64,000 nt of DNA. Source: Escherichia phage vB_EcoM_Maryam. The stretch is taken from the sequence record PQ799574.1; one strand, given 5' to 3'. The notes under the pieces are model-generated. The model did no database searches. It was not told the DNA's origin and worked only from the letters and a program-made list of their open reading frames with translations. The position numbers and the translations under genes were made by a program. Shown here in pieces: positions 36,374 to 56,660 of the stretch; the stretch's first letter is position 1; each line of letters begins with the position of its first letter.

Positions 36374-36488
36374 ATTGAATTATATTATGGATACTATAAA
36401 TGATATGATTTTTCATTTTGGTCCAGAATTTTATTCGCAATATAGTTTAGTGCTTATCAATGCTTGGTTAATCAATTAAGGGTAAAAT

Positions 36489-36704
36489 ATGTATAAATTT
36501 CGTAAAGGTTTAGCTGATTTTCTTACAACTGTAACATTCTTTCTGTTTATGGCAGTTGGAGCTATTTTTCTTATTCCTTTTATTGTTGTATTTTTCGTTA
36601 TTAGTTTAATTTCTCCAGAAAAGGGCTTATCTTCTAGTGAGTTCAATGAGCGTCTGGATAAAATTACTAACAAGCTGAATGCTGTTCTTGATAAAAAGGC
36701 TTAA
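36489..36704 (+). CDS. small membrane protein
   Basis: 71 aa, two TM helices. Confidence 0.5.
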   Translation: MYKFRKGLADFLTTVTFFLFMAVGAIFLIPFIVVFFVISLISPEKGLSSSEFNERLDKITNKLNAVLDKKA

Positions 36705-36706
36705 TT

Positions 36707-37018
36707 ATGATTAGTTTTGAGCGGTATGTAGTAGAGAGTTGGAATGGTTTTGATATGTTCGGTAATGACTATTATTTCTATGAATGTAGTCTGAACCCAA
36801 GCTTCTGGGCTGGACGTGAACAAGACCTCGAAGAAATCAACGCTCGTGCCGATTTGTTAGGTGAACTGCCTACTACTTATTTCACCTTTGATGAATCCGG
36901 CTTCGTTATCCAGGTTTATTTCCCTGAAGAAAATTCTGGTGATGATTCTGTTAATCCTCCTTATTGGGCTTACCAAGGAATTATTTCTCGTGGAACAAAA
37001 CTCGAACTTAAAGAATAA
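36707..37018 (+). CDS. hypothetical protein
   Basis: 103 aa. Confidence 0.5.
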   Translation: MISFERYVVESWNGFDMFGNDYYFYECSLNPSFWAGREQDLEEINARADLLGELPTTYFTFDESGFVIQVYFPEENSGDDSVNPPYWAYQGIISRGTKLELKE

Positions 37019-37019
37019 G

Positions 37020-37313
37020 ATTGAAGTCTATGGAATTCCAGATGAAGTAGGTCGTTGTCCTGGATGTCAATCAGTTACAAAACTTCTAAAGGAGCTCAAT
37101 GCTCCTTTTACTTTCTATAAAGTTCTTACAAATAACGGTAAGATTGAGTATGATCGTCCACTGATTGTATCTCTTGCTAAACGCGCTGGATTCACATCTC
37201 TTAACATTCGTTATCCAGTCATTTTCATTAATGATTCTAGACAAAAGAACATTAAACACTTCAAAGAAACTCTCATTTCACTTGGATATGATAGAGATAT
37301 CATAGAAGATTAA
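37020..37313 (+). CDS. nrdH: glutaredoxin-like protein NrdH (start codon uncertain, no in-frame ATG)
   Basis: CPGC redox motif in KIEVYGIPDEVGRCPGCQ; ORF open from 36861 with no ATG near the domain start. Confidence 0.55.
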   Translation: MEVYGIPDEVGRCPGCQSVTKLLKELNAPFTFYKVLTNNGKIEYDRPLIVSLAKRAGFTSLNIRYPVIFINDSRQKNIKHFKETLISLGYDRDIIED

Positions 37314-37315
37314 GA

Positions 37316-37340
37316 CGGGCCCTTTGGGCCTTTCTTTCTC
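37316..37340 (+). terminator. rho-independent terminator (ggccc-ttt-gggcc + T-rich)
   Basis: GC hairpin followed by tttctttctc. Confidence 0.55.
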
Positions 37341-37411
37341 ACATTCTGTATATTACCATTCTAAGCTATCGTTCCCTTCTTATCATTCCCTAAAATAATT
37401 TTCACAAAGTT

Positions 37412-37442
37412 GTTTACAACGAGCTCAAACTGTGGTATTATT
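37412..37442 (+). promoter_or_regulatory. T4-type early promoter (GTTTAC ... TGTGGTATTATT)
   Basis: upstream ttcacaaagttgtttaca identical to the promoter at 6031-6048. Confidence 0.7.
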
Positions 37443-37640
37443 AACACATGAATTGCCTTTGAGGAATTGATATGGTTGATAAAGAGATTAAAATTGACCA
37501 GTATTATCGTGTTAACGGACATATCGTTATTGTTACAGCAGTCGATGATCTAGATGTTCATTATACTGTGATTAAATGGAACAAACGTATGATTTGTGAT
37601 CGTGCTGTATTTAGTTCAGTTGCTAAGGAAATTAAACTCC

Positions 37641-37934
37641 ATGGGTAAAACGTATCGTCGTAAAGACTTAAAAGTGCGTGATTATGACTATTTCGGAAAG
37701 CGTAAAGCTCCTGATGGGGTAAGTCATAAAGATATGGTTGAAAACATTTTTCGCTCAGATAAATGGCGTAGAATGAAAGGCATTGATTCAGAAGTTAAAG
37801 ATGAGCTAAATCGCCAATTACGCGGTGAAGTAAGAAAGTTGAAAAAATCAGTTTACATTGATGATGATTTTGATTATAATACTTCTCAACGAGTTGCTAA
37901 ACGTAAATCAAACGAGTGTTATCGTTACAGCTGA
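37641..37934 (+). CDS. hypothetical basic protein
   Basis: 97 aa from ATG 37641. Confidence 0.45.
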   Translation: MGKTYRRKDLKVRDYDYFGKRKAPDGVSHKDMVENIFRSDKWRRMKGIDSEVKDELNRQLRGEVRKLKKSVYIDDDFDYNTSQRVAKRKSNECYRYS

Positions 37935-38073
37935 GGAAAATATGAATATCAAACGAATGCTTTTTAAGCAGGGGTTATACACTTTAAATGTTACTCCAAA
38001 AGGTGATACAACTAAGTGGTCAGTAAATGACTGGATTAAATTTATTGATGAAAATGGTAATTGGGAAATTTAA

Positions 38074-38274
38074 ATGAATCCTGAATCTAAATTATCGCAG
38101 CGAATTGCCGAAGCTCGTCGTCAGTTCTTTGAAAATATGATAGCACAAGGTATTGATGACGAAGTTTTTCTAAACTGGTTTTGGAATCACAAATATTCAA
38201 GTTGCTCAGGAGCAATATTAATATCAGCCGCAATGATGTATGAAGGCTGGAAGGGTGCCAAACGGTTTAGCTAA
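38074..38274 (+). CDS. hypothetical protein
   Basis: 66 aa. Confidence 0.45.
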   Translation: MNPESKLSQRIAEARRQFFENMIAQGIDDEVFLNWFWNHKYSSCSGAILISAAMMYEGWKGAKRFS

Positions 38275-38292
38275 GGGCTTCGGCCCTTTTTG
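38273..38292 (+). terminator. rho-independent terminator (agggc-ttcg-gccct + T5)
   Basis: UUCG hairpin then ttttt. Confidence 0.7.
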
Positions 38293-38326
38293 GATAATAA
38301 AATTTTAATGCAATTGAGGATAATGT

Positions 38327-38653
38327 ATGACTATTCAAATTAAAAACGCCATCAATTCTTACGCATATGATAAAGTAGTTTCTTTGTTAGAAAAAGGCGA
38401 TATTGTAACTCCTCAAATTTTGGATAAATGGGAAAAAGAGCTTCATCAAATGATGAAACAGAATGATCAGAAGATTGGACGCAATACTGTCCGTGAATTG
38501 TTGGTTCAATATATCTTGTCAGAATTTGATGTTAAAGCTTTTGGTGTAGAATCTAAAGCTTATCAAAAGCATGAAATTTCCGATAAAACTATTCGTCGCA
38601 TGAAAAATCAACGCAAGAAAAAATTTGCAGACCTGAAAATTACTAAGGTATAA
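38327..38653 (+). CDS. hypothetical protein
   Basis: 108 aa. Confidence 0.5.
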   Translation: MTIQIKNAINSYAYDKVVSLLEKGDIVTPQILDKWEKELHQMMKQNDQKIGRNTVRELLVQYILSEFDVKAFGVESKAYQKHEISDKTIRRMKNQRKKKFADLKITKV

Positions 38654-38655
38654 TT

Positions 38656-38871
38656 ATGAACGAAGCTCTTATTAACGATTTGCGTCTTGCCGGATATGAA
38701 GTAAATACAAACGGCAATGGTTTAACTCAAATTGAAGGAAATGGATTCATCCTTGAGTATGAATTTAGCCAATGGTGGTTATATGCCAATTACGGCGAAT
38801 TGATTGAATATGTTGACCAATTTGATTCACTAGATGCAGCTCTTGGAGCGGCTAAGTTGATGAATGTATGA
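38656..38871 (+). CDS. hypothetical protein
   Basis: 71 aa. Confidence 0.45.
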   Translation: MNEALINDLRLAGYEVNTNGNGLTQIEGNGFILEYEFSQWWLYANYGELIEYVDQFDSLDAALGAAKLMNV

Positions 38872-39137
38872 AATTTATTAATATTTCTATTACTATTGAA
38901 AATTATGGCATTTTCTATGTTGACCAATACATGAAAATTTCATTTTTCCCAAATAAGACTGGTGTTGGATATTGGGAAAGCCATGTTTCTGAATTAAATG
39001 AAAGTGAATATGTTAGTACACATGAAAAGTTTTTAGACTTTTTATATCATGCTGATCTAACTAGTCATTATATAGATATTCATGAATTTAAAAAGATGAT
39101 GGAGAAAGTATTCCAAGCATACTGTTTACTTAGATAA
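38868..39137 (+). CDS. hypothetical protein
   Basis: 89 aa. Confidence 0.45.
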   Translation: MKFINISITIENYGIFYVDQYMKISFFPNKTGVGYWESHVSELNESEYVSTHEKFLDFLYHADLTSHYIDIHEFKKMMEKVFQAYCLLR

Positions 39138-39215
39138 CTGATATCCTCTATGCTTTAAGATAGATCTTCAAATATTATGATATAATAGATCTATGAATTG
39201 AGCTAAGAGGTGAAA

Positions 39216-39773
39216 ATGTCAGAAACTAAGCCTAAATATAATTACGTAAACAATAAAGAGCTTTTACAAGCTATTATTGATTGGAAAACAGAATTAGCAA
39301 ATAATAAAGACCCAAATAAAGTAGTTCGTCAGAATGATACTATCGGATTAGCCATTATGCTTATTGCAGAAGGCTTATCTAAGCGTTTCAACTTTTCAGG
39401 ATACACCCAGTCTTGGAAACAAGAAATGATTGCAGATGGTATAGAAGCTTCTATTAAGGGGCTTCACAATTTTGATGAAACGAAATATAAAAACCCACAT
39501 GCATATATAACTCAAGCTTGTTTTAATGCATTCGTCCAGCGTATTAAAAAAGAACGTAAGGAAGTTGCAAAGAAATATAGTTACTTCGTTCACAATGTCT
39601 ATGACAGTCGTGACGACGATATGGTTGCGTTAGTAGATGAAACTTTTATTCAAGACATCTACGATAAAATGACGCATTACGAAGAATCAACCTATAGAAC
39701 ACCGGGGGCTGAAAAGAAAAGTGTTGTAGACGATTCTCCTAGTTTGGATTTTTTATATGAGGCTAACGATTAA
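39216..39773 (+). CDS. 55: late-transcription sigma factor gp55
   Basis: 185 aa from ATG 39216; matches recalled T4 gp55 N-terminus [23 protein letters not shown]. Confidence 0.9.
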
Positions 39774-39975
39774 CCTCTCCGGATTCTTGGAAGAAATACC
39801 TGAAGTTGAAGCTATTCCCTATTTACTTAAAATGTATCTCAGGGAAGTTTTAGCTCTTGACATTGATATTGATCCAGAAAATCCGTATGATACCGCTTTT
39901 AAATCTAATGGTGTAGAATTAAATTACAGGTATCATTTAACAGATGATGATTTTTATTTTATATTAGAGAAATAA
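39757..39975 (+). CDS. hypothetical protein
   Basis: 72 aa. Confidence 0.4.
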
Positions 39976-39976
39976 T

Positions 39977-40294
39977 ATGACTGATAAACCCGAAATTAAT
40001 GATGAAGTGGAAAAGCTTATTTCTTCTATTGAAGAAAAGAACCGTCTTGAAGCAGAAAGAAAAGCAAATAAGTTATTGTCTAAAAACAAACGCGAACTGA
40101 ATCGTCTTTATAAGCATGCTCAGATTGCGGCTGAAAATAATAATTTTGCTCAATACGAATATGCTATCAAGAAAAGTCGGGATATTCTAAAACAGCCATA
40201 TAACGATGAACTCATCAGTATTCTTTGGAAGACTACTAGATCGCAAATTGAGGATATGATTGATGCTTACACACGTAAAATTCAAGCGTCTTAA
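39977..40294 (+). CDS. hypothetical protein
   Basis: 105 aa. Confidence 0.45.
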   Translation: MTDKPEINDEVEKLISSIEEKNRLEAERKANKLLSKNKRELNRLYKHAQIAAENNNFAQYEYAIKKSRDILKQPYNDELISILWKTTRSQIEDMIDAYTRKIQAS

Positions 40295-40466
40295 AATTAA
40301 TGCAGGATTTACTGAATCTTTGAATGGTCATCTTTGTGTGAAAATTTCTGAAAAAGAATACCATGATAGTTCAATTAAAGAAGTTAATCCTCCTATTGTA
40401 AGAGCAGACCCTAATATGAAAGTGTGGGTTGATTCTTATCAAGTCAAAAAATGGTGGCAGTTATGA
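40260..40466 (+). CDS. hypothetical protein
   Basis: 68 aa. Confidence 0.4.
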   Translation: MMLTHVKFKRLKINAGFTESLNGHLCVKISEKEYHDSSIKEVNPPIVRADPNMKVWVDSYQVKKWWQL

Positions 40467-40642
40467 AAGATGAACATCCAGACTTCTGAAATAGATTATA
40501 ATAAAATTCGTTCCTCTAAAGAGGAAATGATGAGACTCTTTAAAGCGTCTCATGATAAAGCTAAAGCAGAAGGAACTATAAAATATAAGCGCATAAAATT
40601 TAAAAGTTCTAACGAGCCTCTGTATGGCGTATTATGTGGATA

Positions 40643-40658
40643 GGAGCTTCGGCTCCTA
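40643..40658 (+). terminator. UUCG-tetraloop hairpin (aggagc-ttcg-gctcct)
   Basis: perfect 6-bp stem. Confidence 0.45.
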
Positions 40659-40660
40659 TA

Positions 40661-40690
40661 TTGCTTTATAAATTTTTGGTAAAATAAACC
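40661..40690 (+). promoter_or_regulatory. putative MotA-dependent middle promoter for a-gt (MotA box TTGCTTTA)
   Basis: TTGCTTTA at 40661-40668 with an A/T -10-like element about 12 nt downstream. Confidence 0.4.
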
Positions 40691-40709
40691 AAAACAAAGA
40701 GGATATTAA

Positions 40710-41912
40710 ATGAAAGTATGTATTTTTATGGCTCGAGGTCTTGAAGGTTGTGGTGTAACAAAATTCTCACTCGAGCAACGTGATTGGTTTATTAAAAATG
40801 GTCATGAAGTAACTTTGGTTTATGCTAAAGATAAATCATTTACTCGTAATTGCGCGCATGATTATAAATCATTTTCAATTCCGGTTTTATTGGCAAAAGA
40901 ATATGATAAAACACTTAAGCTGGTAAATGATTGTGATATTCTAATTATCAATTCAGTTCCTGCTACTTCGGTTGAAGAAGACACTATTAATAACTATAAA
41001 AAAATTATTGATAACATTAAACCTTCTGTTCGTGTTGTAGTTTATCAACATGACCATTCTTCTCTTTCTTTGCGCCGAAATTTGGGATTAGAAGAAACTG
41101 TTCGTCGAGCTGATGTTATTTTTAGCCATTCTGATAATGGTGATTTTAATAAAGTTCTGATGAAAGAATGGTATCCTGAAACAGTTTCTCTGTTTGATGA
41201 TATTGAAGAAGCACCGACAGTATATAACTTTCAGCCTCCTATGGATATTGCGAAGGTTCGGTCAACCTACTGGAAAGATGTTTCTGAAATTAACATGAAT
41301 ATCAACCGTTGGATTGGTCGTACGACTACATGGAAAGGTTTTTATCAGATGTTTGATTTTCATGAAAAACATCTTAAACCTGCAGGACTAAGTACTATTA
41401 TGGAAGGTCTGGAACGTTCTCCAGCGTTCATTCCTATTAAAGAAAAAGGAATTCCATACGAGTATTATCGTCTTCATCAAGTAGACCAAATTAAAATTGC
41501 TCCTAATTTGCCAACGCAAATTCTTGACCGTTATGTAAATAGCGAAATGCTTGAACGTATGAGTAAATCCGGTTTTGGTTATCAGTTGAGTAAGTTGGAT
41601 AAAAAATATCTACAACGTTCTTTAGAATATACTCATCTCGAGCTTGGTGCATGTGGAACAATTCCGGTATTTTGGAAATCTACTGGCGAAAATTTAAAAT
41701 TCCGTGTTGATAATACTCCGCTAATTTCGCATGATAGCGGTATCGTTTGGTTTGATGAAAATGATATGGAATCAACGTTTGAACGTATTAAAGAACTGTC
41801 ATCTGACCGAGCTCTTTATGACCGTGAGCGAGAAAAAGCGTATGAATTTTTGTATCAGCATCAAGATTCAAGCTTCTGCTTTAAAGAACAGTTTGACATT
41901 ATTACAAAATAA
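40710..41912 (+). CDS. a-gt: DNA alpha-glucosyltransferase
   Basis: 400 aa; position between gene 55 and gene 47. Confidence 0.8.
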   Translation: MKVCIFMARGLEGCGVTKFSLEQRDWFIKNGHEVTLVYAKDKSFTRNCAHDYKSFSIPVLLAKEYDKTLKLVNDCDILIINSVPATSVEEDTINNYKKIIDNIKPSVRVVVYQHDHSSLSLRRNLGLEETVRRADVIFSHSDNGDFNKVLMKEWYPETVSLFDDIEEAPTVYNFQPPMDIAKVRSTYWKDVSEINMNINRWIGRTTTWKGFYQMFDFHEKHLKPAGLSTIMEGLERSPAFIPIKEKGIPYEYYRLHQVDQIKIAPNLPTQILDRYVNSEMLERMSKSGFGYQLSKLDKKYLQRSLEYTHLELGACGTIPVFWKSTGENLKFRVDNTPLISHDSGIVWFDENDMESTFERIKELSSDRALYDREREKAYEFLYQHQDSSFCFKEQFDIITK

Positions 41913-41913
41913 A

Positions 41914-41932
41914 GGGCTTCGGCCCTTTAGCT
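41914..41932 (+). terminator. UUCG-tetraloop hairpin (agggc-ttcg-gccct)
   Basis: hairpin just after a-gt stop; weak T tract. Confidence 0.5.
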
Positions 41933-42088
41933 TTATACGGAGTTTGATATAATGATATTTCTTGGATATGTGATACTTTTTCTTGCATTTTATCTATTCA
42001 CTAGAGCATGTTGGATTGGGTTCTTTAGCACTCCAGATGGATTTATTTCAATAATTTTATTTTGCATTTCAATGACGGTTCTTGATAT

Positions 42089-43108
42089 ATGAAAATTTTA
42101 AATTTAGGTGATTGGCATTTAGGCGTTAAAGCTGATGATGAGTGGGTTCAATCCATTCAGTTGGATGGAATTAAACAAGCAATAGAATATTCTAAGAAAA
42201 ATGGAATTACTACCTGGATTCAATACGGCGATATTTTTGATGTGCGAAAAGCGATCACGCATAAAACTATGGAGTTTGCTCGTGAAATAGTTCAAATGCT
42301 TGATGATGCTGGTATTACCCTACATACTATTGTAGGAAACCATGATATGCACTTTAAAAATACTTTAACTCCAAATGCCTCTACTGAGCTTTTGGCTAAA
42401 TATCCTAATGTTAAAGTATATGATAAGCCTACTACAGTAGATTTTGACGGATGTTTAATTGATTTAATTCCTTGGATGTGTGAAGAAAATACTGGTGAAA
42501 TTCTTGAACACATCAAAACTTCATCTGCTTCTTTTTGTGTTGGTCACTGGGAACTGAATGGATTTTATTTTTATAAAGGAATGAAATCTCATGGTCTTGA
42601 ACCTGATTTCCTTAAGACTTATAAAGAAGTGTGGTCTGGTCACTTCCATACTATTTCTGAGGCTGCAAACGTCAGATATATTGGGACACCATGGACACTA
42701 ACTGCAGGTGACGAGAATGACCCTCGTGGGTTCTGGATGTTTGATACAGAAACAGAACGAATGGAATTTATTCCAAACAATACTACCTGGCATCGTAGAA
42801 TTCATTATCCATTTAAAGGAAAAATTGACTATAAAGATTTTACAAATCTATCAGTACGTGTTATAGTAACTGAAGTAGACAAAAATCTAACGAAGTTCGA
42901 ATCTGAACTAGAAAAAGTTGTGCATTCATTACGAGTTGTGTCAAAGATTGATAACTCTGTCGAGTCAGATGACAGTGAAGAAGTTGAAGTTCAATCTCTT
43001 CAGACGTTGATGGAAGAATACATTAATGCAATTCCAGACATCACTGATTCTGATCGCGAAGCACTTATTCAATATGCAAATCAGTTATATGTAGAGGCAA
43101 CACAATGA
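42089..43108 (+). CDS. 47: recombination endonuclease subunit gp47 (Mre11-like)
   Basis: 339 aa; phosphoesterase motifs GDWHLG, GDIFD, GNHD. Confidence 0.9.
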   Translation: MKILNLGDWHLGVKADDEWVQSIQLDGIKQAIEYSKKNGITTWIQYGDIFDVRKAITHKTMEFAREIVQMLDDAGITLHTIVGNHDMHFKNTLTPNASTELLAKYPNVKVYDKPTTVDFDGCLIDLIPWMCEENTGEILEHIKTSSASFCVGHWELNGFYFYKGMKSHGLEPDFLKTYKEVWSGHFHTISEAANVRYIGTPWTLTAGDENDPRGFWMFDTETERMEFIPNNTTWHRRIHYPFKGKIDYKDFTNLSVRVIVTEVDKNLTKFESELEKVVHSLRVVSKIDNSVESDDSEEVEVQSLQTLMEEYINAIPDITDSDREALIQYANQLYVEATQ

Positions 43109-43368
43109 CTTTTGATGAATTTAAAAATGTTATGATGAGTCAGCATTTTGAATGCGAAGTAAAAGATGATATTGGTCATAAAGAAATTATTGAATATTGG
43201 TTTGAACCGCTAGAGGTTGAAGATAATTGTATTAAAAAGGTTACGGTCTGCACTGACTGGGCTGTATCTTTTAACTTCAACATTTTAGATAATGACACAC
43301 CTAAATCATTACGAGATATGGCTGTATCTTGTATTAAGGATGCATATTGTGAAGTTTTCGACATTTGA
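43105..43368 (+). CDS. hypothetical protein
   Basis: 87 aa. Confidence 0.5.
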   Translation: MTFDEFKNVMMSQHFECEVKDDIGHKEIIEYWFEPLEVEDNCIKKVTVCTDWAVSFNFNILDNDTPKSLRDMAVSCIKDAYCEVFDI

Positions 43369-43555
43369 CATTAATGATGAATTCATAGCAAATATTGATT
43401 ATACCGAAGAAGATTCTAGATATGTTGGAATAATTTATATTACATCAAAAACAGCACAAGGTGTTGTTTGCATGGCTGAATTTGATGAATACTTTTTAGA
43501 TTATGATGATATGATAGAATGGTCTAAAAGATACATTAAAAGGAATCTTTTGTGA
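43340..43555 (+). CDS. hypothetical protein
   Basis: 71 aa from ATG 43340. Confidence 0.45.
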   Translation: MHIVKFSTFDINDEFIANIDYTEEDSRYVGIIYITSKTAQGVVCMAEFDEYFLDYDDMIEWSKRYIKRNLL

Positions 43556-45234
43556 AGAATTTTAAACTAAACCGAGTTAGGTATCAAAATATAATGTCAG
43601 TAGGTGGAAATCCTATTGACATTCAATTAGATAAGGTTCAAAAAACTCTTATTACTGGACGAAATGGCGGTGGTAAGTCTACTATGCTAGAAGCCATCAC
43701 ATTTGGGCTTTTTGGTAAGCCATTTCGTGATGTAAAGAAAGGTCAATTAATAAACAGCACAAATAAGAAAGAACTTTTAGTTGAACTGTGGATGGAATAT
43801 GATGAGAAAAAGTACTATATCAAAAGAGGACAAAAACCAAACGTTTTCGAAATCACCGTTAACGGTACACGTCTTAATGAATCTGCCAGCAGTAAAGATT
43901 TCCAAGCAGAATTTGAACAGCTTATCGGAATGTCATATGCCAGTTTCAAGCAGATTGTTGTCCTTGGTACAGCAGGGTATACCCCTTTCATGGGTTTGTC
44001 GACCCCTGCACGAAGAAAGCTTGTGGAAGACCTGCTTGAGGTAGGAACATTAGCTGAAATGGATAAGCTTAATAAAGCACTAATACGTGAATTAAATTCG
44101 CAGAACCAAGTGCTTGATGTTAAAAAAGATAGTATTATCCAACAAATTAAAATATATAATGATAACGTTGAACGCCAGAAAAAATTGTCTGGTGACAACC
44201 TTACTCGTCTGCAGAATATGTATGATGATTTGGCAAAAGAAGCTAGAACGCTAAAATCGGAAATAGAAGAAGCTAATGAAAGATTAGTTAATATTGTTTT
44301 AGATGAAGACCCGACTGATGCATTTAATAAAATCGGTCAAGAAGCATTTTTAATTAAATCAAAAATTGACTCGTATAATAAAGTCATTAATATGTATCAT
44401 GAAGGTGGATTATGTCCAACCTGTTTGTCACAATTAAGTTCCGGTGATAAAGTTGTTTCTAAAATTAAAGATAAAGTTTCTGAATGTACGCATTCATTTG
44501 AACAGCTTTCAACACACCGTGATAATTTAAAAGTTCTTGTTGATGAATACCGAGATAATATTAAAACCCAGCAGTCGTTGGCAAATGATATTCGCAATAA
44601 AAAGCAATCTCTAATCACGACGGTAGATAAAGCTAAAAAAGTTAAAGCGGCTATAGAAAAAGCATCTTCTGAGTTTATTGACCATGCTGATGAAATAGCA
44701 CTGCTTCAAGAAGAACTTGATAAAATTGTTAAGACAAAAACTAATTTAGTAATGGAAAAATACCACCGAGGAATTTTGACTGATATGCTCAAAGATTCTG
44801 GTATTAAAGGTGCTATTATTAAAAAGTACATTCCATTATTTAATAAGCAGATTAACCATTATCTTAAAATAATGGAAGCGGATTATGTGTTTACATTAGA
44901 TGAAGAATTTAATGAGACAATTAAATCCCGTGGTCGTGAAGATTTTAGTTATGCTTCATTTAGTGAAGGTGAAAAGGCACGAATTGATATTGCTCTTTTA
45001 TTTACTTGGCGTGATATTGCTTCTATCGTATCTGGTGTTAGTATTAGTACATTAATTCTTGATGAAGTGTTTGATGGGTCATTTGATGCCGAAGGTATTA
45101 AAGGTGTAGCTAATATTATAAATTCAATGAAAAACACTAATGTTTTTATAATTTCGCATAAAGACCATGACCCGCAAGAATATGGTCAGCATCTTCAAAT
45201 GAAGAAAGTTGGTCGATTTACTATAATGGTTTAA
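43552..45234 (+). CDS. 46: recombination endonuclease subunit gp46 (Rad50/SbcC-like ATPase)
   Basis: 560 aa; Walker A GRNGGGKST, central coiled coil with CPTC zinc hook, C-terminal signature; GTG start. Confidence 0.9.
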   Translation: MKNFKLNRVRYQNIMSVGGNPIDIQLDKVQKTLITGRNGGGKSTMLEAITFGLFGKPFRDVKKGQLINSTNKKELLVELWMEYDEKKYYIKRGQKPNVFEITVNGTRLNESASSKDFQAEFEQLIGMSYASFKQIVVLGTAGYTPFMGLSTPARRKLVEDLLEVGTLAEMDKLNKALIRELNSQNQVLDVKKDSIIQQIKIYNDNVERQKKLSGDNLTRLQNMYDDLAKEARTLKSEIEEANERLVNIVLDEDPTDAFNKIGQEAFLIKSKIDSYNKVINMYHEGGLCPTCLSQLSSGDKVVSKIKDKVSECTHSFEQLSTHRDNLKVLVDEYRDNIKTQQSLANDIRNKKQSLITTVDKAKKVKAAIEKASSEFIDHADEIALLQEELDKIVKTKTNLVMEKYHRGILTDMLKDSGIKGAIIKKYIPLFNKQINHYLKIMEADYVFTLDEEFNETIKSRGREDFSYASFSEGEKARIDIALLFTWRDIASIVSGVSISTLILDEVFDGSFDAEGIKGVANIINSMKNTNVFIISHKDHDPQEYGQHLQMKKVGRFTIMV

Positions 45235-45289
45235 TTTATAAGAGATTATGCTTTAATTTATTAGAGTATAATCTCTATGGAGGAAAAAC

Positions 45290-45478
45290 ATGGAATATTC
45301 AACTGGACAGCATCTATTAACTATTCCTGAAATAAAACGATATATTCTGAGAAATAATTTTTCTAATGAAGAGCATATAGTTACTGAATCTATGCTTAGG
45401 AATGCATTTAAAGCAGAATATACAAAAATAATGTCCAATAGAAATGAAGCTTGGACTGTTACTGATTATTATGACTAA
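45290..45478 (+). CDS. hypothetical protein
   Basis: 62 aa. Confidence 0.45.
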   Translation: MEYSTGQHLLTIPEIKRYILRNNFSNEEHIVTESMLRNAFKAEYTKIMSNRNEAWTVTDYYD

Positions 45479-45487
45479 AGGTGTATT

Positions 45488-45877
45488 ATGACTAAAATTA
45501 CTGTGAATTATACTGTTGATGTAAAAGATATTCAGCCAAAACACGTGCGTTCTGAATCAAATCCACAAAACCAAAATAAAATTCGTCGCGCATGGGTTTT
45601 GTCTCTTTCTGATAACGCAATGGAAGTTATTCAGAATAAAATTAAATCTGCACCTGCTCGTCATGCGTATTATGAAGCTATCGATCGTGAAGTAAGTAAT
45701 AAATGGATTGAACTAATGCGCAAACATACTACAGAATCCCTAAACGCCGGTGCTAAATTTATTATGACTTCATGTGGTGAACGCCTTGAAGATGATTATT
45801 GTGGTAATGCAGATGAACGTCTAATTGTTGCTGCTCAAATTGTTGCGGAAACAATTGCGGCTGATTTTAATCGTTAA
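45488..45877 (+). CDS. rpbA: RNA polymerase-binding protein RpbA
   Basis: 129 aa; position between gene 46 and gene 45. Confidence 0.7.
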
Positions 45878-45878
45878 T

Positions 45879-45905
45879 TGCTTTATTAAATTAGTTATAA
45901 AATTA
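45879..45905 (+). promoter_or_regulatory. putative middle promoter for gene 45 (MotA box TGCTTTA)
   Basis: TGCTTTA at 45879-45885 followed by an A/T -10-like element; spacing slightly short. Confidence 0.35.
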
Positions 45906-45932
45906 AATCTCATTTGAATTGAAGGAAATTAC

Positions 45933-45992
45933 ATGAAACTGTCTAAAGATACTACTGCTCTGCTTAAAAATTTCGCTACTATTAACTCGTAA
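45933..45992 (+). pseudogene. 45: truncated sliding clamp gene 45: first 19 codons then stop
   Basis: MKLSKDTTALLKNFATINS matches recalled gp45 N-terminus; expected GIMLKSG continuation is replaced by TAA; rest of the 228-codon gene absent. Confidence 0.8.
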
Positions 45993-46062
45993 TTAAAATC
46001 GCAGCAGTTTTTTCATTCAGAACATCGTTAGAAGCTTTGATGATGTAAGTTACTTTAGACAT
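45982..46062 (-). pseudogene. motA: truncated motA: first about 25 codons on minus strand, then unrelated codons and stop
   Basis: minus-strand MSKVTYIIKASNDVLNEKTAAILIT matches recalled MotA N-terminus; similarity ends at 45988, abutting the gene 45 fragment. Confidence 0.75.
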
Positions 46063-46159
46063 TTTGTTTCTCCGTAGTTGATAAGACTATAATACCATAA
46101 GTTAAAGCAGAAGTAAACTTTATTTTGAGCTCTTTTTCAAGAGCTCTGGTAAAAATTAC

Positions 46160-46375
46160 TTAGATTGATAGGTCTTTAATCTTAGCTATTAAAACAGCTT
46201 TTCCTTCACGAAGTTTTTCCAGTTTACGACCATTAGAGCCGCGAACTACTAAGGAATTTATCTCCACTTCCAACCAATTTAGTTTTTCAACTAGTTCTTT
46301 ACGTTTAGCATTCATGCCGGGTTTAACTTTACCGAAACGGGTGGTAGCGTTTTGAGTATTTTTCATCTTATTCAT
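46160..46375 (-). CDS. hypothetical basic protein
   Basis: 71 aa; ggag RBS. Confidence 0.5.
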   Translation of the reverse strand: MNKMKNTQNATTRFGKVKPGMNAKRKELVEKLNWLEVEINSLVVRGSNGRKLEKLREGKAVLIAKIKDLSI

Positions 46376-46414
46376 TTTAATCTCCAGTTATTTTTCTGTA
46401 TCAGTGTTGATAGG

Positions 46415-46447
46415 GTAATAGTACCATGGAATGCTTTGGTTGTAAAC
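46415..46447 (-). promoter_or_regulatory. T4-type early promoter, minus strand (GTTTAC ... TGGTACTATTAC)
   Basis: reverse complement shows GTTTAC, 15-nt spacer, extended -10; shares ctattaccctatcaac with the promoters at 6061 and 6361. Confidence 0.65.
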
Positions 46448-46469
46448 CGTTTTGTGAAAAAAATTTTAA

Positions 46470-46497
46470 ATAAAAAAGGGAGAGCCGAGGCTCTCCC
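46470..46497 (-). terminator. rho-independent terminator, minus strand (gggagagcc hairpin + T run on minus)
   Basis: 9-bp GC stem; A run precedes on plus strand, so T run follows on minus. Confidence 0.65.
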
Positions 46498-46502
46498 TAA
46501 AA

Positions 46503-46652
46503 TTACTGCATGACTGTGATAACTGTCATGATAACACGTTGAATTCCGAACGCAAGAAGACCTCCTGCTACGGCTGGAACAACGCCTAAACCAGCCAGTA
46601 AAATGCTACCAGATACTAATGCAGCGCTTGTAATACCAATGAATGGACTCAT
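46503..46652 (-). CDS. small hydrophobic membrane peptide
   Basis: 49 aa MSPFIGITSAALVSGSILLAGLGVV...; ATGA overlap with gene 52 stop. Confidence 0.4.
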   Translation of the reverse strand: MSPFIGITSAALVSGSILLAGLGVVPAVAGGLLAFGIQRVIMTVITVMQ

Positions 46653-47977
46653 TTGATTTCCTCTAAATCTTTGGTGTATTCGGTAACTACATCAGTAGTT
46701 TTCCAATATTCGTTTTCTTCTTTTTTAGCTTTAGCTTCTTCAGCAAGTTTCTTTGCTTCATCGGAAGTCATATGAAAAATATTCATTCCAACTAGTTTAT
46801 CAACATAAGAAGAATACATATCGATTTTCGAAAGTTCTTCGGTCAGTTCTTTACGAGTTTTACCCTGTACAACAATTTCACCTGAAATTACTTTCTTAAT
46901 GAAATGTGCCTTGGCAAAGGCTAAACGAAAAGCTGATTCAGTTTCTTTAATTTTGTTATCAATTCGTTTTTGGACATAAGTTTTACGAACTTCAACGAAG
47001 TCTTTAATTAAATCAACTACGTTATCGTAAACTTGTAGTTTTCCTTTCTCATTAATAACCGTAATATTCTGAGAACGACGCTCAATCAACCCAAAGTCTT
47101 TCATAATTTTTGCATGGCGTTCTTCTTCATTATCGCTCAAAGAATATTCTTTACGGAATTTAACTTTGAATCCAAAACCGTGCTCACCGCAAGCATCATC
47201 CCATGTAATGAAGCCTTTATCTTCAAGTGGGTCTAAGATTTTACTCACATAAGTTTCACGATCATACTTATATGGAATCTCAGTGATATGCATTTGAGTT
47301 CGTGAAGTAAACTTATATGTTCCGCGAATTTCATATTGACCATCAATCTCAACGACTTCACCACGAAATTCTGGGAATTCTACCTTCGGTTTAGTTACTT
47401 TCTTTCCTTGAAGAGCTTGCAGTACAGCTTTCTTGACAGAAGAAACACTATGAGGAAGAATGTAAGTTGCATAACCAGTTGCAATACCGGAAACGCCATT
47501 AAGAAGAACAGTAGGAATAATAGGTAAATAGAAAGCAGGCGGAATGTGTTCTTTATCTTGATGTACCGGAGCATATTCAGTATCTTTATATACGTTATAG
47601 AAATTTTTACTTACACGAGCAAAAATATAACGACTTGCTGCTGCTTTTTGGACGGTACGAGAACCAAAGTTTCCTTGACCATCTAACAGAGGAAAATTAT
47701 TATTCCAAGTGTTAGCCATCAAAGCACCTGCGTCTTGTGCAGAGTTTTCGCCATGGTGATATCCAAGGTCCGCTACACCACCTGCAATAGAAGCAAGTTT
47801 GTGAAACTTATCTTTATTTCCTCGTGCCAAATCAAGAGCTCGAGCAATAACAAATCGTTGAACTGGCTTAAATCCATCAATCATATTTGGAATGGCACGA
47901 TTTTCAACCGTGTACATAGCATAAGCCAATGCTTCATTATCAATGATACTTTTTAAATCGCGATTATTCAGTTGCAT
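46649..47977 (-). CDS. 52: DNA topoisomerase II medium subunit gp52 (GyrA-like)
   Basis: 442 aa; conserved GyrA-like N-terminal region (PNMIDGFKPVQRFVIARAL). Confidence 0.9.
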   Translation of the reverse strand: MQLNNRDLKSIIDNEALAYAMYTVENRAIPNMIDGFKPVQRFVIARALDLARGNKDKFHKLASIAGGVADLGYHHGENSAQDAGALMANTWNNNFPLLDGQGNFGSRTVQKAAASRYIFARVSKNFYNVYKDTEYAPVHQDKEHIPPAFYLPIIPTVLLNGVSGIATGYATYILPHSVSSVKKAVLQALQGKKVTKPKVEFPEFRGEVVEIDGQYEIRGTYKFTSRTQMHITEIPYKYDRETYVSKILDPLEDKGFITWDDACGEHGFGFKVKFRKEYSLSDNEEERHAKIMKDFGLIERRSQNITVINEKGKLQVYDNVVDLIKDFVEVRKTYVQKRIDNKIKETESAFRLAFAKAHFIKKVISGEIVVQGKTRKELTEELSKIDMYSSYVDKLVGMNIFHMTSDEAKKLAEEAKAKKEENEYWKTTDVVTEYTKDLEEIK

Positions 47978-47981
47978 AAAT

Positions 47982-48122
47982 TTACCATACTAGTGAATGT
48001 AGTGCCATAATAACATCAGAAATGAAAAGCACGACTTGAATTAATCCGAACATTACTCCATAATATAGTGCTACTAATAAAGTAGCAAGGGCTAATGAAT
48101 AGCCCAAGATTTTCTTAATCAT
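47982..48122 (-). CDS. small membrane peptide
   Basis: 46 aa hydrophobic ORF MIKKILGYSLALATLLVALYYG... Confidence 0.4.
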   Translation of the reverse strand: MIKKILGYSLALATLLVALYYGVMFGLIQVVLFISDVIMALHSLVW

Positions 48123-48273
48123 TAGTAGATAACAACACAAATGTTAAATATGCACACATACCTTGGGCTAAAGCTTGCGAAAACACGCTGCTGGCATCAA
48201 TACAGATAGTTAAAACACATGCTACTATCCAACAAATAAATGAAATAACTCCTAATAATTTTGCAATATTCAT
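48115..48273 (-). CDS. small membrane peptide (ac position)
   Basis: 52 aa MNIAKLLGVISFICWIVACVLTIC...; overlaps the next small ORF. Confidence 0.4.
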   Translation of the reverse strand: MNIAKLLGVISFICWIVACVLTICIDASSVFSQALAQGMCAYLTFVLLSTND

Positions 48274-48360
48274 ATTTTCCTCACTGGCGTCCGAAGACGC
48301 CTTTAGTTTTAAGATTATTACGATAGAACTGCATCACATGTTCGTTATGGAAATTACTCA

Positions 48361-48819
48361 TTAATATGCCTGCAAAACAAATTTAAAGTTATCAGCCAAC
48401 ATACGGTTCATTTCTTCAAGTGTTTGATACTCAGAATGATGATTACGAGTAAACGCCAAAGCTAACTGACCTTTACCAAATCCTGTCGTCAGAGGTTTCA
48501 TCTTAGAAGCAGGCAGATAAAATACTGTGTATGGAACATTGTTATTTGCAATAGTACGTGCAAGCTGAGACCGACGTTGACGAATATGACTTAGAACTGC
48601 ACTGAATCCTTGCTTAGAACGCTGATTACCTACATAAAATCGTGCAGACACACATGGATTACTAAATGGACGACCATCTAATTTACTTACTAAAAAGTAA
48701 AATCCAGGTTTAGATAAAATGTCTTTATGCGGAGTTCCCAAAAACCATTCACCGCCCTTGATTGTGCCAATAACAGTAGCGCCTGCATTATTCAGATCAG
48801 TAACAGTCATGTATTTCAT
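48361..48819 (-). CDS. hypothetical protein (ndd position, possible nucleoid disruption protein)
   Basis: 152 aa from ATG 48819; assignment by position and size only. Confidence 0.4.
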
Positions 48820-48879
48820 ATTAATTTCCTCTAAATTATTTTCTACTCCAAGGCCGCATGAATACACGCGGCCATTAAA

Positions 48880-49095
48880 TTAATCGTCGCAGTCGACGCT
48901 CAATTCCCAAAACTCTTCTACGGTATAAGTTTCAATATCATTTTCAATACAGAAACGTTCATTACTATTGTTTGCTAAAGTAGCGTTAACTGTCATTTTC
49001 TCGCTGGTACTCTTAAGAGGTGAAATACGAATTAACTGATCACCGTTATCTAAACAAAAAATTTCACCAACTTTTACATCTTTAAAACTTTTCAT
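48880..49095 (-). CDS. hypothetical protein
   Basis: 71 aa. Confidence 0.45.
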   Translation of the reverse strand: MKSFKDVKVGEIFCLDNGDQLIRISPLKSTSEKMTVNATLANNSNERFCIENDIETYTVEEFWELSVDCDD

Positions 49096-49210
49096 AATTC
49101 ACCTCAAGGAGTATAAAATCCGAATGCAGTTGTTGACCATCCCATCCAGTATGGGAAATTTGCACCAATGTAAAACATAAGAATATAAAACCAACCGCTC
49201 AGCAAATTCA

Positions 49211-49429
49211 TCATTTTACACCGTTCCAAATTGTTTCAACCACGGATTTTAAGCCATTTTGATGAATGTCCATTCCAACTACCGCCATCAAATAGATTCC
49301 AACTACAACTGAACCTAAGGCAAAAATCAGCATGAAAATGAATAAAGCCGGAAAAATATTATCGAAAAACCATTCAATAAATGTAAAAGCACTGCGTTTA
49401 CGCTTCATATTTTCCTCACATAAATCCAA
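49211..49429 (-). CDS. small membrane protein
   Basis: 72 aa; TM helix. Confidence 0.45.
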   Translation of the reverse strand: MDLCEENMKRKRSAFTFIEWFFDNIFPALFIFMLIFALGSVVVGIYLMAVVGMDIHQNGLKSVVETIWNGVK

Positions 49430-49529
49430 AGTAAACGTTTAATACATCAATCATTAAAACGATTGGGAATATACTCAAAACAACTAAAATTATAATTATA
49501 TTCCATATAGCTTTAATAATCTTTTTCAT
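49416..49529 (-). CDS. small membrane peptide
   Basis: 37 aa from ATG 49529 with ggagg RBS; longer ORF-track version runs through a promoter. Confidence 0.35.
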   Translation of the reverse strand: MKKIIKAIWNIIIILVVLSIFPIVLMIDVLNVYFGFM

Positions 49530-49554
49530 TTTGTGTTCCTCCGTGGTTGATAGG

Positions 49555-49587
49555 GTAATAATACCACAGAGGAACAGTCTTGTAAAC
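49555..49587 (-). promoter_or_regulatory. T4-type early promoter, minus strand (GTTTAC ... TGTGGTATTATTAC)
   Basis: reverse complement gttgtttacaagactgttcctctgtggtattattaccctatcaacc. Confidence 0.65.
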
Positions 49588-49834
49588 AACTTTTTTAAAA
49601 ATATTCGTAATAAATGTGAATACCAATCACTACTGCCGAAACTTGCGCAACCCACCACGCACAAGCAATAAGTACAGAATTAAAAATTTTCATAATAACC
49701 TCATCACAAAAGTAAATGTTAAACAAATTACTGGAATACTAATTAACCAAACAAAACACCACCACAATGAACTCATAGTTCAATCTCAGCGATTTTCATT
49801 TTATTCTCCAAATCTGTATCAGTAGTTGATAGTT

Positions 49835-49866
49835 GTATAGTACCACGGTCCTTGTGGTATGTAAAC
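49835..49866 (-). promoter_or_regulatory. T4-type early promoter, minus strand (GTTTAC ... TGGTACTATAC)
   Basis: member of repeated promoter cassette family. Confidence 0.65.
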
Positions 49867-49881
49867 CATTTTGTGAAATTT

Positions 49882-50439
49882 TTAAATGGAAAGATACCAT
49901 CCATTGTAGTTGCTTTTTCTTACAACCTTACGAAGGTCTTCTCTATCACCGATGAACTTCGGAGTGTACTGGATGACACCTGGATGAATTTCTTTAGTGT
50001 TGAATATAATTATACAGTCCGCGACCTGGTGATTTAGAATGGGCCCTAGATTTATTCCAGAACCATATGGATACTCTCCGCTGCATCCTGTTGTTACAGA
50101 AATCCAACGTGAGTCAGTTTGATGTGTCTTAACTTCTACACGGAGCCCGCAATATTTTGGATGTGCTAAAACATCCCATGCATATGTGTACGGATCATTG
50201 ACATCTTCTTGGCCTTTATTGACATATCCGCTTAGCCAATCTGCTACAAAAAACTCTGCGTACACAGCGATACGGCATCTTTCGATAACTTCTGTCTTAT
50301 CCTGATTTGGGTTTTGTTTTAAAGAGTATCTTGCAGTATCAGCAATTTTGACCTTCATTTCACCAGTCAAGTCACTGTTCGATAGGGTAAATGTCGGAAT
50401 CTGAAATAGTCTCTGTAGCCCCGGATTCGTTTTCTGCAT
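49882..50439 (-). CDS. denB: endonuclease IV DenB (by position and size)
   Basis: 185 aa, between the ndd-region ORFs and rIIB. Confidence 0.6.
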   Translation of the reverse strand: MQKTNPGLQRLFQIPTFTLSNSDLTGEMKVKIADTARYSLKQNPNQDKTEVIERCRIAVYAEFFVADWLSGYVNKGQEDVNDPYTYAWDVLAHPKYCGLRVEVKTHQTDSRWISVTTGCSGEYPYGSGINLGPILNHQVADCIIIFNTKEIHPGVIQYTPKFIGDREDLRKVVRKSNYNGWYLSI

Positions 50440-50493
50440 TTAAACTTTCCTTTATGTCGGAATCACTGATATTCATATAATAAATCATAAAAC

Positions 50494-50512
50494 AAAAGGG
50501 CCGAAGCCCTTA
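50494..50512 (-). terminator. hairpin terminator (gggc-cgaa-gccc) with A/T runs on both sides
   Basis: GC stem with CGAA loop between convergently ending ORFs. Confidence 0.5.
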
Positions 50513-50514
50513 TT

Positions 50515-50709
50515 TTATTTGAATTGTGCAATTCTTTTCTCTAGACATTCAGCATAAGATTTCATTGAGATGAACTGTGAAAGCAGCAGTTCTTGCTCAA
50601 CTGCACTAACCGTTAGAAACTTTGTGCTTTCTAAAAATTTGCTCAGTGCATTAATTTTGAGCATTAATTGATCGTATTCTTCTTTTACTCGTGCTTGATA
50701 ACCTAACAT
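50515..50709 (-). CDS. hypothetical protein
   Basis: 64 aa. Confidence 0.45.
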   Translation of the reverse strand: MLGYQARVKEEYDQLMLKINALSKFLESTKFLTVSAVEQELLLSQFISMKSYAECLEKRIAQFK

Positions 50710-50737
50710 AATTTTCCTTAGTTAAGGGCCGAAGCCC

Positions 50738-51676
50738 TTATTTAAATTGTTCAGTAACGTCTTCAACTACTTCATATTGGCAGGTACGCATTTTAGCATC
50801 ATTGTAATCAATCGGAATTGATACTACATCACGTGGATGTACTTTAACTTTTACAACTCGGCTGGTTGAACTGCCAAAGTGACGAATATAAGATTTAGAA
50901 CACACATGCAGACCACGAGAACAAGTTTGTGTATCATCGTCATTCACACGAGTACGCGGCATTTTAACTACTTTACCAGGACTGTTATCAAAGGTATTTG
51001 AGTGACAGTCAAAGTAATTGCTGCGAACTACTTTCCAAGCATAGAAGTAACCATCTTCTGTAATTTCAATATCGTTTGCTACCAAGAAATCAAAAAGTCG
51101 AGATACCGCTTTCTGGCTTGGGTTTTCCAGCAGATTTTCCAAGAACGGAAAATAAAATTCAAAGTTTTCGCCTTTTTCCATCGAATCAAGAATACGATCA
51201 ACCAAACCAGACCGCAATTCAATATTTTGATAGAATAAGCTTCCACCTTCAATTCGAACATCGCCGGAAATATATTTTTCAACAGCACGACGAACATTAA
51301 TTTTTTGTGCCGCTTCTTCCAGCTTATCTGCTACAAGCAGATTAAGAATTTCCTGGAAGTTTGAATGAGTATTAGGAGTTGCGTTATAAGTTACACCGTC
51401 AACAGTAATTGAAATGAATTTTTTAGATGCATTCCAAATAATGTCAGATTTAGCAACTGGAGCAATAACTGCATCGCTATTAACTTTAACTGTAATATCA
51501 CCGCTAATAGTAACTTTAGAGCGTTTAGCTTCTTCAGCATTTTTCAAAACACGACGGATTGTGTCAACCGATACATCCTTCCAATAAGCTAATTCCTGCT
51601 GAGTGTAATTACCACTTGAATACAGTTTAACAATTTCAGCTTGTTCGTTTTTGGTCAGGCATTTAATATTGTACAT
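50738..51676 (-). CDS. rIIB: rIIB membrane-associated protein
   Basis: 312 aa; directly downstream of rIIA. Confidence 0.85.
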   Translation of the reverse strand: MYNIKCLTKNEQAEIVKLYSSGNYTQQELAYWKDVSVDTIRRVLKNAEEAKRSKVTISGDITVKVNSDAVIAPVAKSDIIWNASKKFISITVDGVTYNATPNTHSNFQEILNLLVADKLEEAAQKINVRRAVEKYISGDVRIEGGSLFYQNIELRSGLVDRILDSMEKGENFEFYFPFLENLLENPSQKAVSRLFDFLVANDIEITEDGYFYAWKVVRSNYFDCHSNTFDNSPGKVVKMPRTRVNDDDTQTCSRGLHVCSKSYIRHFGSSTSRVVKVKVHPRDVVSIPIDYNDAKMRTCQYEVVEDVTEQFK

Positions 51677-51687
51677 AATTTTCCTTA

Positions 51688-53865
51688 TTAGGCCGCAAGG
51701 GCCTTCATAGTTTTAGCGATTTGGGAAACTTCATCATCACTTAAAGAGTTGCGATATCCGATGAAGTCGGAAACAATACGGAATTTCTTGGTAAACTCAG
51801 CAACCATTTTATCACTGTTTTTTGAAGCATTATTTGATAATACATCAAAAAGATTAGTTACTGTCCAGATGTCATGACCGATGGTATCTTTTCCACCATT
51901 AAAATATACACCGCGCAATGAACTAACTATATTAGCGAGTCGTGTATATTCTTCAGAAACTTCATCTGTACTGAAGTACTTCATCATAAAATCTAGTTCA
52001 GGATACTTGATAATTTTATCAATATATCGTTGAGCTGAACTTGAATAACCTACATACTTATCATAATCTACATCATCAAAAGCATCTACATATAAATCAC
52101 GCAAAGCTTCAAAAATACATTGGCACTGACCGAGTTCTTTTACCTTTTTCTGTAAAAGCGGACGAATAACATAAAATTCATTAATGCCAATAAGATTAGC
52201 CATACGAATCAAAATATTCATAGATGGATGACAAAGAGATGTAGTACCATCCATAGAGAAAATATCAGAACGATGCATATACGCTACATAACCAGTAATT
52301 TCATCTGCTTCTGATGTGAGCGTAAATAATTCCTCTTTTTCCCATCGCCCATCTTTAATTTCAAACTTAAATGCTGTAGCAGCTTTAGGACGAGGAGCTT
52401 TACTTTTAACTACCTTTGGAATATAGCTTTTAACTAAAGCTTCAATTTCTGACAAATAATGAATGTTAACTTCATCACTTTCAAACATCGCCATAATATC
52501 AGGAAGTAAATCAATCTGCGATTCTACTTCCGGATTAATAAACAGAAGACGCTCATTGTGATGAATATTCAAAGTGTTATTAAATTCACTATCATCTAAC
52601 GCGTGTGCTAATCCACGGACAATATTAACACGATTTTTAATATTATCAATAACGATATTAATTTTTGTTGCATTAATACCAAACAGACGATAACTTGATG
52701 CAACGGCTGAAGTTTCATGACTTTGCTTAATGCGCTTCAGTCGAGGGTCAAGATTTACTTCATACACAACTCCTGCATTACATAACTTACTATCAGGTTC
52801 AAACATGCTTTGCATCTTCTTATATGACAGATTTTTAGTCGTAAATTTGACTGAATTACTAATCATATAATCTCGAGCAGAATACCCCATCTTCATCAAT
52901 TCACGATATGTATGACGGGGAGATGTGGATTCTTTAAATCGTTTTACATCTTCATTAAATGCTTTCTCACTGAGTTCTTTAACTCGTTCAATGATATTTT
53001 TACGAGTGCGATCATCTAGTGAAAGAGCCTCGCGAGATGGAGCAATATCAAGTGAACCCATTGGAAACTTAATGTAATTCACTTCATTGCGAATGCTTAG
53101 CCAGTTACGGTCTCTAATAACACCATCGATAGGATAAACAATACCGCCATAGATAGCATATAATCCACCACGATCAGGCCAGTATCTTTCTGGATTTACA
53201 CCATAATAATCATCAAAATCCGGAAAATAATCAATTTCACGGTCAAGACCATTAATGATAGCCAAATCTTTGAACGGTCGCATGATATAAGAAACTTCAT
53301 AAGCAAAGTTTCTAAAGTCTTTTTCTTCAACTGGAACTACGATTTCAATACCAGTTTTATCATCTGGACCCATTTCTTTTACGAATGTAGGTTTAATCTG
53401 TGGACCATCACCATCCATGTAAGCTACATAACCACGAATTTCACCTTTATGATACGAAGTAATACTAAACGTATCAGTATAACTAAACGGAGATTTAGAA
53501 CCTAAACCAAATCCGCCAATAAAGTCATTAGATTCAGCTTTAGATGAACTGAAGTATGAATTATACAACCCAGGAGAATTATCATCACCTTGAATATCAA
53601 AATCACTCATACCCGGACCAAAATCTCGACAAACAAATCGCGGGTCTAAACGTCCAGGAACTTGTATGATAAATTTCTCTGGATTTCCATTAAGTGCATG
53701 AGCATCAATCATGTTAGTAATCAATTCACGGACTACTGCGCGAATCTTGTTTGTATACAAATCAGACGACAGAATTTTAAATACTTTAGGAGATGCTGTG
53801 ATGCTAAATGCTTTCGATTTAGAACCATTACCAAGAATTGTTTCTTTTTCAGTGGTGATAATCAT
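51688..53865 (-). CDS. rIIA: rIIA protein
   Basis: 725 aa; GHKL-ATPase-like N-terminal region. Confidence 0.9.
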
Positions 53866-53875
53866 AATTTCCTCA

Positions 53876-54079
53876 TTAATTCATATTACGCTTAATAACT
53901 TCAGCAACTTCTAGTAGTTCATCTTTAGTTGCGGTGTCGGATTGAATTTTATCTCTAATATCTTTAAAGCGGTTTTTAAATTCTTCAGCTTCTCCCATAT
54001 CGAAAAAGCGTTGAATGATTCTATATTCTCGATGAACTGCTTTATCAAAAAGTTCTAAATTTACTTTATATGATTTCAT
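53876..54079 (-). CDS. hypothetical protein (rIIA.1 position)
   Basis: 67 aa; gagga RBS. Confidence 0.45.
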
Positions 54080-54100
54080 TTCAATATCCTCATTTGCCCA

Positions 54101-54134
54101 ATTAATTATACCACATCCTTGTGGTAAAGTAAAC
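54101..54134 (-). promoter_or_regulatory. T4-type early promoter, minus strand (GTTTAC ... TGTGGTATAATTAAT)
   Basis: reverse complement cagtagtttactttaccacaaggatgtggtataattaat; would drive rIIA.1-rIIA. Confidence 0.65.
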
Positions 54135-55954: not shown

Positions 55955-56020
55955 TTATCCTCGTTTGGTTTCGGGAATATTATACTCCGGTAATCATAAA
56001 GCTAAAGGCCCGAAGGCCTT

Positions 56021-56658: not shown

Positions 56659-56660
56659 AA

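Follow-up and report, generated by a model that had tools for sequence, protein, structure and literature searches.

Probable chimeric join of gene 45 and motA fragments in the sequence of Escherichia phage vB_EcoM_Maryam

In a stretch of 64,000 nucleotides from sequence record PQ799574.1 (Escherichia phage vB_EcoM_Maryam; the whole of this 64-kb stretch is called the window here), the beginning of the sliding-clamp gene 45 runs directly into the beginning of motA read from the opposite strand. This locus raises the question of whether a T4-like genome has truly been rearranged at this point (that is, whether we are looking at one end of an inversion) or whether two pieces of sequence have been joined that are not neighbours in the phage. 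We address it by comparing the window with the T4 map, with the breakpoint's two parental sequences, with an independent GenBank record of the same template and with public sequence collections.

Two T4-colinear arms and one break

Mapping by BLAST onto T4 (AF158101.6) resolves the 64-kb window into two T4-colinear arms with one break only (Table 1). The right arm carries motA', an open reading frame (ORF) assigned to phrog_6200, motA.1, 52, ac, ndd, denB, rIIB, rIIA, a fused 39/60, cef, motB, dexA, dda, srd and modA', the last of which is truncated where the window ends, 37 nt before its start codon is reached, so that the source sequence must extend past 64 kb. On the T4 circle the two breakpoints lie 37,922 bp apart, which corrects the figure of approximately 35 kb given in the original prediction; the flanking blocks that it had named (gene 5 to rpbA, and motA-52-rIIB-rIIA-39-dda) do flank the break and stand in opposite relative orientation in the window. 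The arms are ordered and oriented as they would be at one end of an inversion of the motA...45 segment, and the reciprocal junction of a balanced inversion would fall approximately 37.9 kb past 45,988, beyond the 64-kb window.

Table 1 Coordinates of features at the junction and in the two arms
Feature	Position in window	Strand	Description
Left arm, gene 5.1/5 to 46, 45.2, rpbA and 45'	1..45988	+	T4 79,980 to 32,548, reversed
Right arm	45989..64000	-	T4 163,529 to 168,903/1 to 12,473, forward
Junction	45988..45989	.	Blunt join without microhomology (0 nt) or filler
Gene 45 upstream signals (putative)	45878-45885; 45896-45903	+	MotA-box-like TTGCTTTA; TATAAAAT; found by eye
Gene 45 (sliding clamp) 5' fragment	45933..45988	+	56 nt = 18 codons + 2 nt; identical to PV290051.1 gene 45
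Chimeric ORF, gene 45 side	45933..45992	+	MKLSKDTTALLKNFATINS then stop; ATG at 45,933; TAA at 45990-45992 from motA-derived antisense sequence
motA 5' fragment	45989..46062	-	74 nt = 24 codons + 2 nt; aligns to motA of teqsoen, Manna, vB_Eco_BGP and others
Chimeric ORF, motA side	46062..45982	-	MSKVTYIIKASNDVLNEKTAAILITS then stop; 25 aa of MotA, then Ser and stop from gene 45 antisense
Sigma-70-like promoter upstream of motA stump (putative)	46089..46117	-	TTTACT-17-TATTAT with upstream TG; consensus scan
phrog_6200 ORF	46160-46375	-	71 aa, basic; between motA and motA.1
Terminator-like hairpin	46477-46498	-	Strong; 9 pairs (6 G-C), then T-run
motA.1	46503-46652	-	
Topoisomerase II large subunit (fused 39/60)	54134-55954	-	Single 606-aa product; full-length match to phrog_543
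Replacement of T4 denV-ipII-ipIII interval	14533-14975		About 440 bp in place of T4 64,942-66,384 (~1.4 kb)
ORF in the replacement	14502..14975		Annotated hypothetical

Within the arms, several elements of T4 are missing or replaced. Genes 39 and 60 are fused into a single large-subunit gene, and the 60.1/mobA insertion and the translational-bypass segment of gene 60 (T4 2,793 to 3,911) are absent from the window. Likewise, nrdD has no I-TevII group I intron at 34624-34627 (T4 45,850 to 44,814 missing), and the homing-endonuclease genes mobB and mobC are absent at the corresponding gaps of the T4 map (around 40694-40719 and 35903-35926). The sequence that replaces the denV-ipII-ipIII interval carries a different ORF from those of T4.

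Truncated gene 45 and motA

The peptides at the break are the N termini of gp45 and MotA, an assignment that alignment upholds. The gp45 fragment corresponds to residues 1-19 of T4 gp45 (19/19 aa matching), and the MotA fragment agrees with residues 1-25 of T4 MotA at 24 of 25 positions (96%, tblastn) and with MotA of phage teqsoen at all 25; the 19-codon and 25-codon stumps are present where they had been predicted. Chance resemblance can be set aside for both assignments, because hundreds of Tequatrovirus records align with the flanks at a nucleotide identity of 95-100%. The gp45 homology also stands in its native context (that is, with rpbA upstream): taken together with the upstream rpbA and 45.2, the gene 45 fragment is 100% identical in nucleotides to GenBank PV290051.1 and 99.5% identical to T4.

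Neither gene is complete. Full-length gp45 has approximately 228 aa and comprises the domains PF02916 (DNA_PPF) and PF09116 (gp45-slide_C), and the reading frame in the window stops after 19 codons; full-length MotA has approximately 211 aa (211 aa in the relatives) with the domains PF09114 (MotA_activ) and PF09158 (MotCF), of which 25 codons are left. The two chimeric ORFs share 11 nt when stop codons are counted (45982-45992). The stumps are convergent, in that they meet at their truncated 3' ends, with the start codons facing outward, so the description of the locus as a head-to-head fusion is right in that two N-terminal fragments are fused and loose in its choice of term. What remains of the two genes are dead fragments of 19 aa (gp45) and 26 aa (MotA), each of which retains its own start codon and putative promoter. 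As to the other copy of gene 45 that the original prediction had considered necessary in a viable phage, tblastn found no second gp45, nor a second MotA, within the 64-kb window.

The upstream signals of both stumps can be proposed from the letters. Measured against the T4 middle-promoter consensus, the pair of short motifs ahead of gene 45 would be its native upstream signals, the first of them MotA-box-like. The sigma-70-like promoter ahead of the motA stump is a candidate on account of its position, in a region where promoter-like sites are no more numerous than in shuffled sequence.

Two further elements lie on the motA side of the break. The phrog_6200 ORF is at least 99% identical in Salmonella phage Manna, vB_Eco_BGP and UoN_LDJ77_1 and is absent from T4 and teqsoen; being present in some relatives and absent from others, it is an optional gene cassette. 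The terminator-like hairpin lies just downstream of motA.1, between that gene and the phrog_6200 ORF, and the region 45400-46700 holds four terminator-like sites, compared with 0.5 expected from shuffles.

Anatomy of the breakpoint

The breakpoint was placed by a three-way alignment of the window with a left parent (PV290051.1) and a right parent (teqsoen, MN895436), which confirms that the stumps meet at 45988/45989, as had been predicted, and replaces the supposed overlap of approximately 2 nt with a blunt join of 0 nt. The next base in native gene 45 is C and the window has G; the preceding base in the motA antisense sequence is A and the window has C. As the bases mismatch on both sides of 45988/45989, there is neither microhomology nor filler at the junction. 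Each of the two split codons is completed synonymously by a single base of its new neighbour (TCC to TCG, Ser; ACT to ACG, Thr).

Over ±60 nt around the break, the parental sites have no word of at least 8 nt in common, whichever orientation is compared, and the inverted repeats or microhomology that an inversion driven by recombination or template switching would show are thus lacking at the breakpoint. Since no sequence is shared at the parental sites, homologous or inverted-repeat recombination is ruled out, and so is a repeat-induced misjoin of a de Bruijn graph, the commonest kind of misassembly. A 7-mer that does occur near both breakpoints (TACTATT) was rejected as a mediator: it is out of register, it is direct rather than inverted in the native genome, and approximately 0.8 such matches are expected by chance. 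A deletion is ruled out as the cause by the flip in orientation at the break. An effect of circular permutation or of a record end was likewise rejected, given that PV290051.1 runs on for 936 bp past the break and does not contain the right arm.

An independent record with intact gene 45

PV290051.1 is the record of Escherichia phage vB_EcoT_BCU-2 (46,924 bp; River Chelt, UK). Compared position by position, window 1-45,988 and PV290051.1 1-45,988 show 0 mismatches under the same numbering. From 45,989 onwards PV290051.1 runs on into an intact annotated gene 45 (45,933..46,619, 228 aa); at the same base, the window switches to motA antisense. A search of the whole window for the last 936 bases of PV290051.1 found none of them. 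PV290051.1 therefore represents the same template with the canonical rpbA-45 order, so that an independent deposit contradicts the junction at 45988/45989, as is expected of an assembly or construction chimera. The original prediction would have been refuted by reads that run across the junction into full-length gene 45; PV290051.1 comes near to this, as an independent record rather than as reads.

The authority of PV290051.1 is limited, because the record is itself imperfect, being a fragment labelled 'complete genome'. Under that title it comprises a 46.9-kb fragment of a Tequatrovirus genome of approximately 167 kb. The first base of the fragment, which is also the first base of the window, lies within gene 5.1 (T4 79,980), and its last base lies within gene 44 (T4 ~31,612). 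A literature search for phage vB_EcoT_BCU-2, PV290051 or River Chelt returned nothing relevant.

The junction in other sequences

The junction was sought in collections beyond these records. In none of the 690 phage records that match the 1.2-kb junction region (megablast) are the two flanks adjacent. The junction 31-mer has 0 matches in IMG/VR, in JGI metagenome contigs and in GTDB genome contigs, and megablast of the junction region found no match in PLSDB plasmids or in complete E. coli genomes. Where neighbouring genes of the window recur exactly, the surroundings are canonical: exact gp52 occurs in 738 blocks, and among the matches listed 10 of 10 contigs have a full 211-aa motA adjoining; exact alpha-glucosyltransferase occurs in 331 blocks, and among the matches listed 10 of 10 contigs read rpbA, a full 228-aa gene 45 and 44-62-regA-43. 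The arrangement expected of a reproducible inversion is accordingly not repeated: PV290051.1 is canonical, and the flanks are adjacent in 0 of the 690 phage records.

Origin of the two arms

The left arm has an exact counterpart in PV290051.1, and its next-best relatives reach at most 97.6%. The right arm is colinear with teqsoen and hundreds of other phages, its best matches among phage records being 96.6-97.6% identical; a 100% source was sought for it, and sub-queries of the arm gave nothing above 97.6%. Its exact rIIA occurs on five public contigs, all of which are at most 96.2% identical to the right arm in nucleotides. The nearest non-self relatives of both arms stand at approximately 97.3-97.6% and belong in both cases to AR1/wV7/RB18-like phages, with O157 typing phage 7 as a relative common to the two. 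This similar distance and overlap in relatives agrees with a mis-joining of two parts of a single genome, and the simplest reading would be that the two arms belong to the same phage and that the right one has not been deposited. That the right arm is missing from PV290051.1 is as expected, because this record covers only 46.9 kb of a genome of approximately 167 kb.

Artefact or rearrangement

Considering that the join is blunt and free of homology, that the junction is seen nowhere else and that PV290051.1 has an intact gene 45, we suggest that 45988/45989 is very probably an artefact, a chimera in which two pieces of one T4-like (Tequatrovirus) genome that are neither adjacent nor in the same orientation have been joined, and not the phage's own arrangement. 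As the genome of a phage the arrangement is biologically untenable, for a core gene of replication and late transcription would be lost. The original prediction had offered both an inversion end and a chimera; the geometry of an inversion end is there, and of the two readings the inversion is the less favoured in view of PV290051.1, the 0-nt microhomology and the uniqueness of the junction.

Several routes could have led to such a chimera. Two DNA fragments or virion DNA ends (possibly the random ends of headful-packaged virion DNA) may have been joined in a chimeric long read, by ligation or in silico, that was then accepted by the assembler; contigs may have been concatenated during finishing, either manually or by a scaffolder; or the sequence may have been rearranged computationally. 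The 0-nt blunt junction fits end-to-end ligation or concatenation. Both the route taken and the shared phage origin of the arms are matters that we infer rather than observe.

The alternative that survives best is a real inversion of 37.9 kb with its ends at motA nt 74 and gene 45 nt 56, or some more complex rearrangement of the two sites, that was present in a subpopulation of the DNA molecules in the lysate, which we nevertheless consider unlikely. Such a molecule would be the product of illegitimate breakage and rejoining that needs no homology (topoisomerase II could mediate it, for example), would be non-viable on its own and either transient or sustained by complementation in mixed infection, and would have been caught by the assembler beside the normal arrangement seen in PV290051.1. 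A single break between colinear arms of opposite orientation is exactly what one inversion end would look like, both arms resemble the same phage, and the junction is clean, without filler or adapter bases. Type II topoisomerase-mediated illegitimate recombination is able to produce blunt joins without homology, so the form of this junction could have come about in that way too. However, the same template occurs in PV290051.1 with gene 45 intact, and the junction was not found in any other collection searched. Recombination of the T4 type is strongly homology-driven, and there is no homology at this junction. The join costs the genome two genes, a core gene among them, and a defective molecule that is rare would ordinarily lose out in the assembly consensus.

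The narrower proposition that the window records a genuine molecule, namely a homology-independent 38-kb inversion that truncated the sliding-clamp gene and motA in defective genomes abundant enough to be assembled from the lysate, we regard as very unlikely. These genomes might be products of, for example, topoisomerase-mediated illegitimate recombination that were propagated by wild-type co-infection. If real, they would be one of few documented instances of a large inversion without homology in a T-even phage, and even so a defective genome and no new biological system.

A join of two different phages, whether from a mixed lysate or from pasted records, is a sub-case of the artefact explanation, and one to which we attach very slight probability. 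A 100% match exists for the left arm and none anywhere for the right arm, an asymmetry that different origins would produce; yet the absence of the right arm from PV290051.1 is expected of a record spanning only 46.9 kb of an approximately 167-kb genome, and the nearest relatives of the two arms lie at about the same distance, some of them (for example, O157 typing phage 7) being common to both.

Least credible, and very unlikely, is an inversion fixed in a viable phage with intact gp45 and MotA copies elsewhere in its genome, for which the sole point is that the genome past 64 kb lies outside the window and against which stand the lack of a second gp45 or MotA copy in those 64 kb, the synteny at both loci that is universal among the relatives inspected, the canonical arrangement of the same sequence in PV290051.1, and the large duplications that intact copies in operon context alongside the stumps would require, which far exceed the headful slack (headful-packaged T4-type genomes have a spare capacity of a few kb only).

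Taking the join as a probable artefact, the main value of this analysis is in quality control: the first 46 kb of the window duplicate a GenBank record, and their continuation appears to be mis-joined. A by-product is that PV290051.1 is shown to be a fragment despite its 'complete genome' title.

Comparison with known systems

In the canonical Tequatrovirus arrangement, T4 (AF158101.6) reads ...46-45.2-rpbA-45-44-62-regA-43... at one locus and ...arn-motA-motA.1-52... at the other, and each arm of the window is colinear with it gene by gene at 86-98% identity. T4 and all the relatives inspected have both genes whole (gene 45, 228 aa; motA, 211 aa), approximately 38 kb apart and in the same orientation, whereas in the window they are cut to 19 and 25 codons and abut one another.

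A balanced inversion is alike in relative order and orientation, in that the window presents one end of a 37.9-kb motA-rII-39-43-45 segment. It differs at the breakpoint, which has neither inverted repeats nor microhomology; an inversion at this place would, moreover, put a core gene out of action, and none is seen in the related phages inspected. Among errors of assembly, repeat-induced misassembly differs from the present case in that the two sites of this junction share no repeat. The resemblance is instead to the chimeric contigs that occur in phage assemblies, with which the window has in common an abrupt switch between non-adjacent regions in opposite orientation, a homology-free blunt join within coding sequence, contradiction by an independent record and absence from all other genomes examined.
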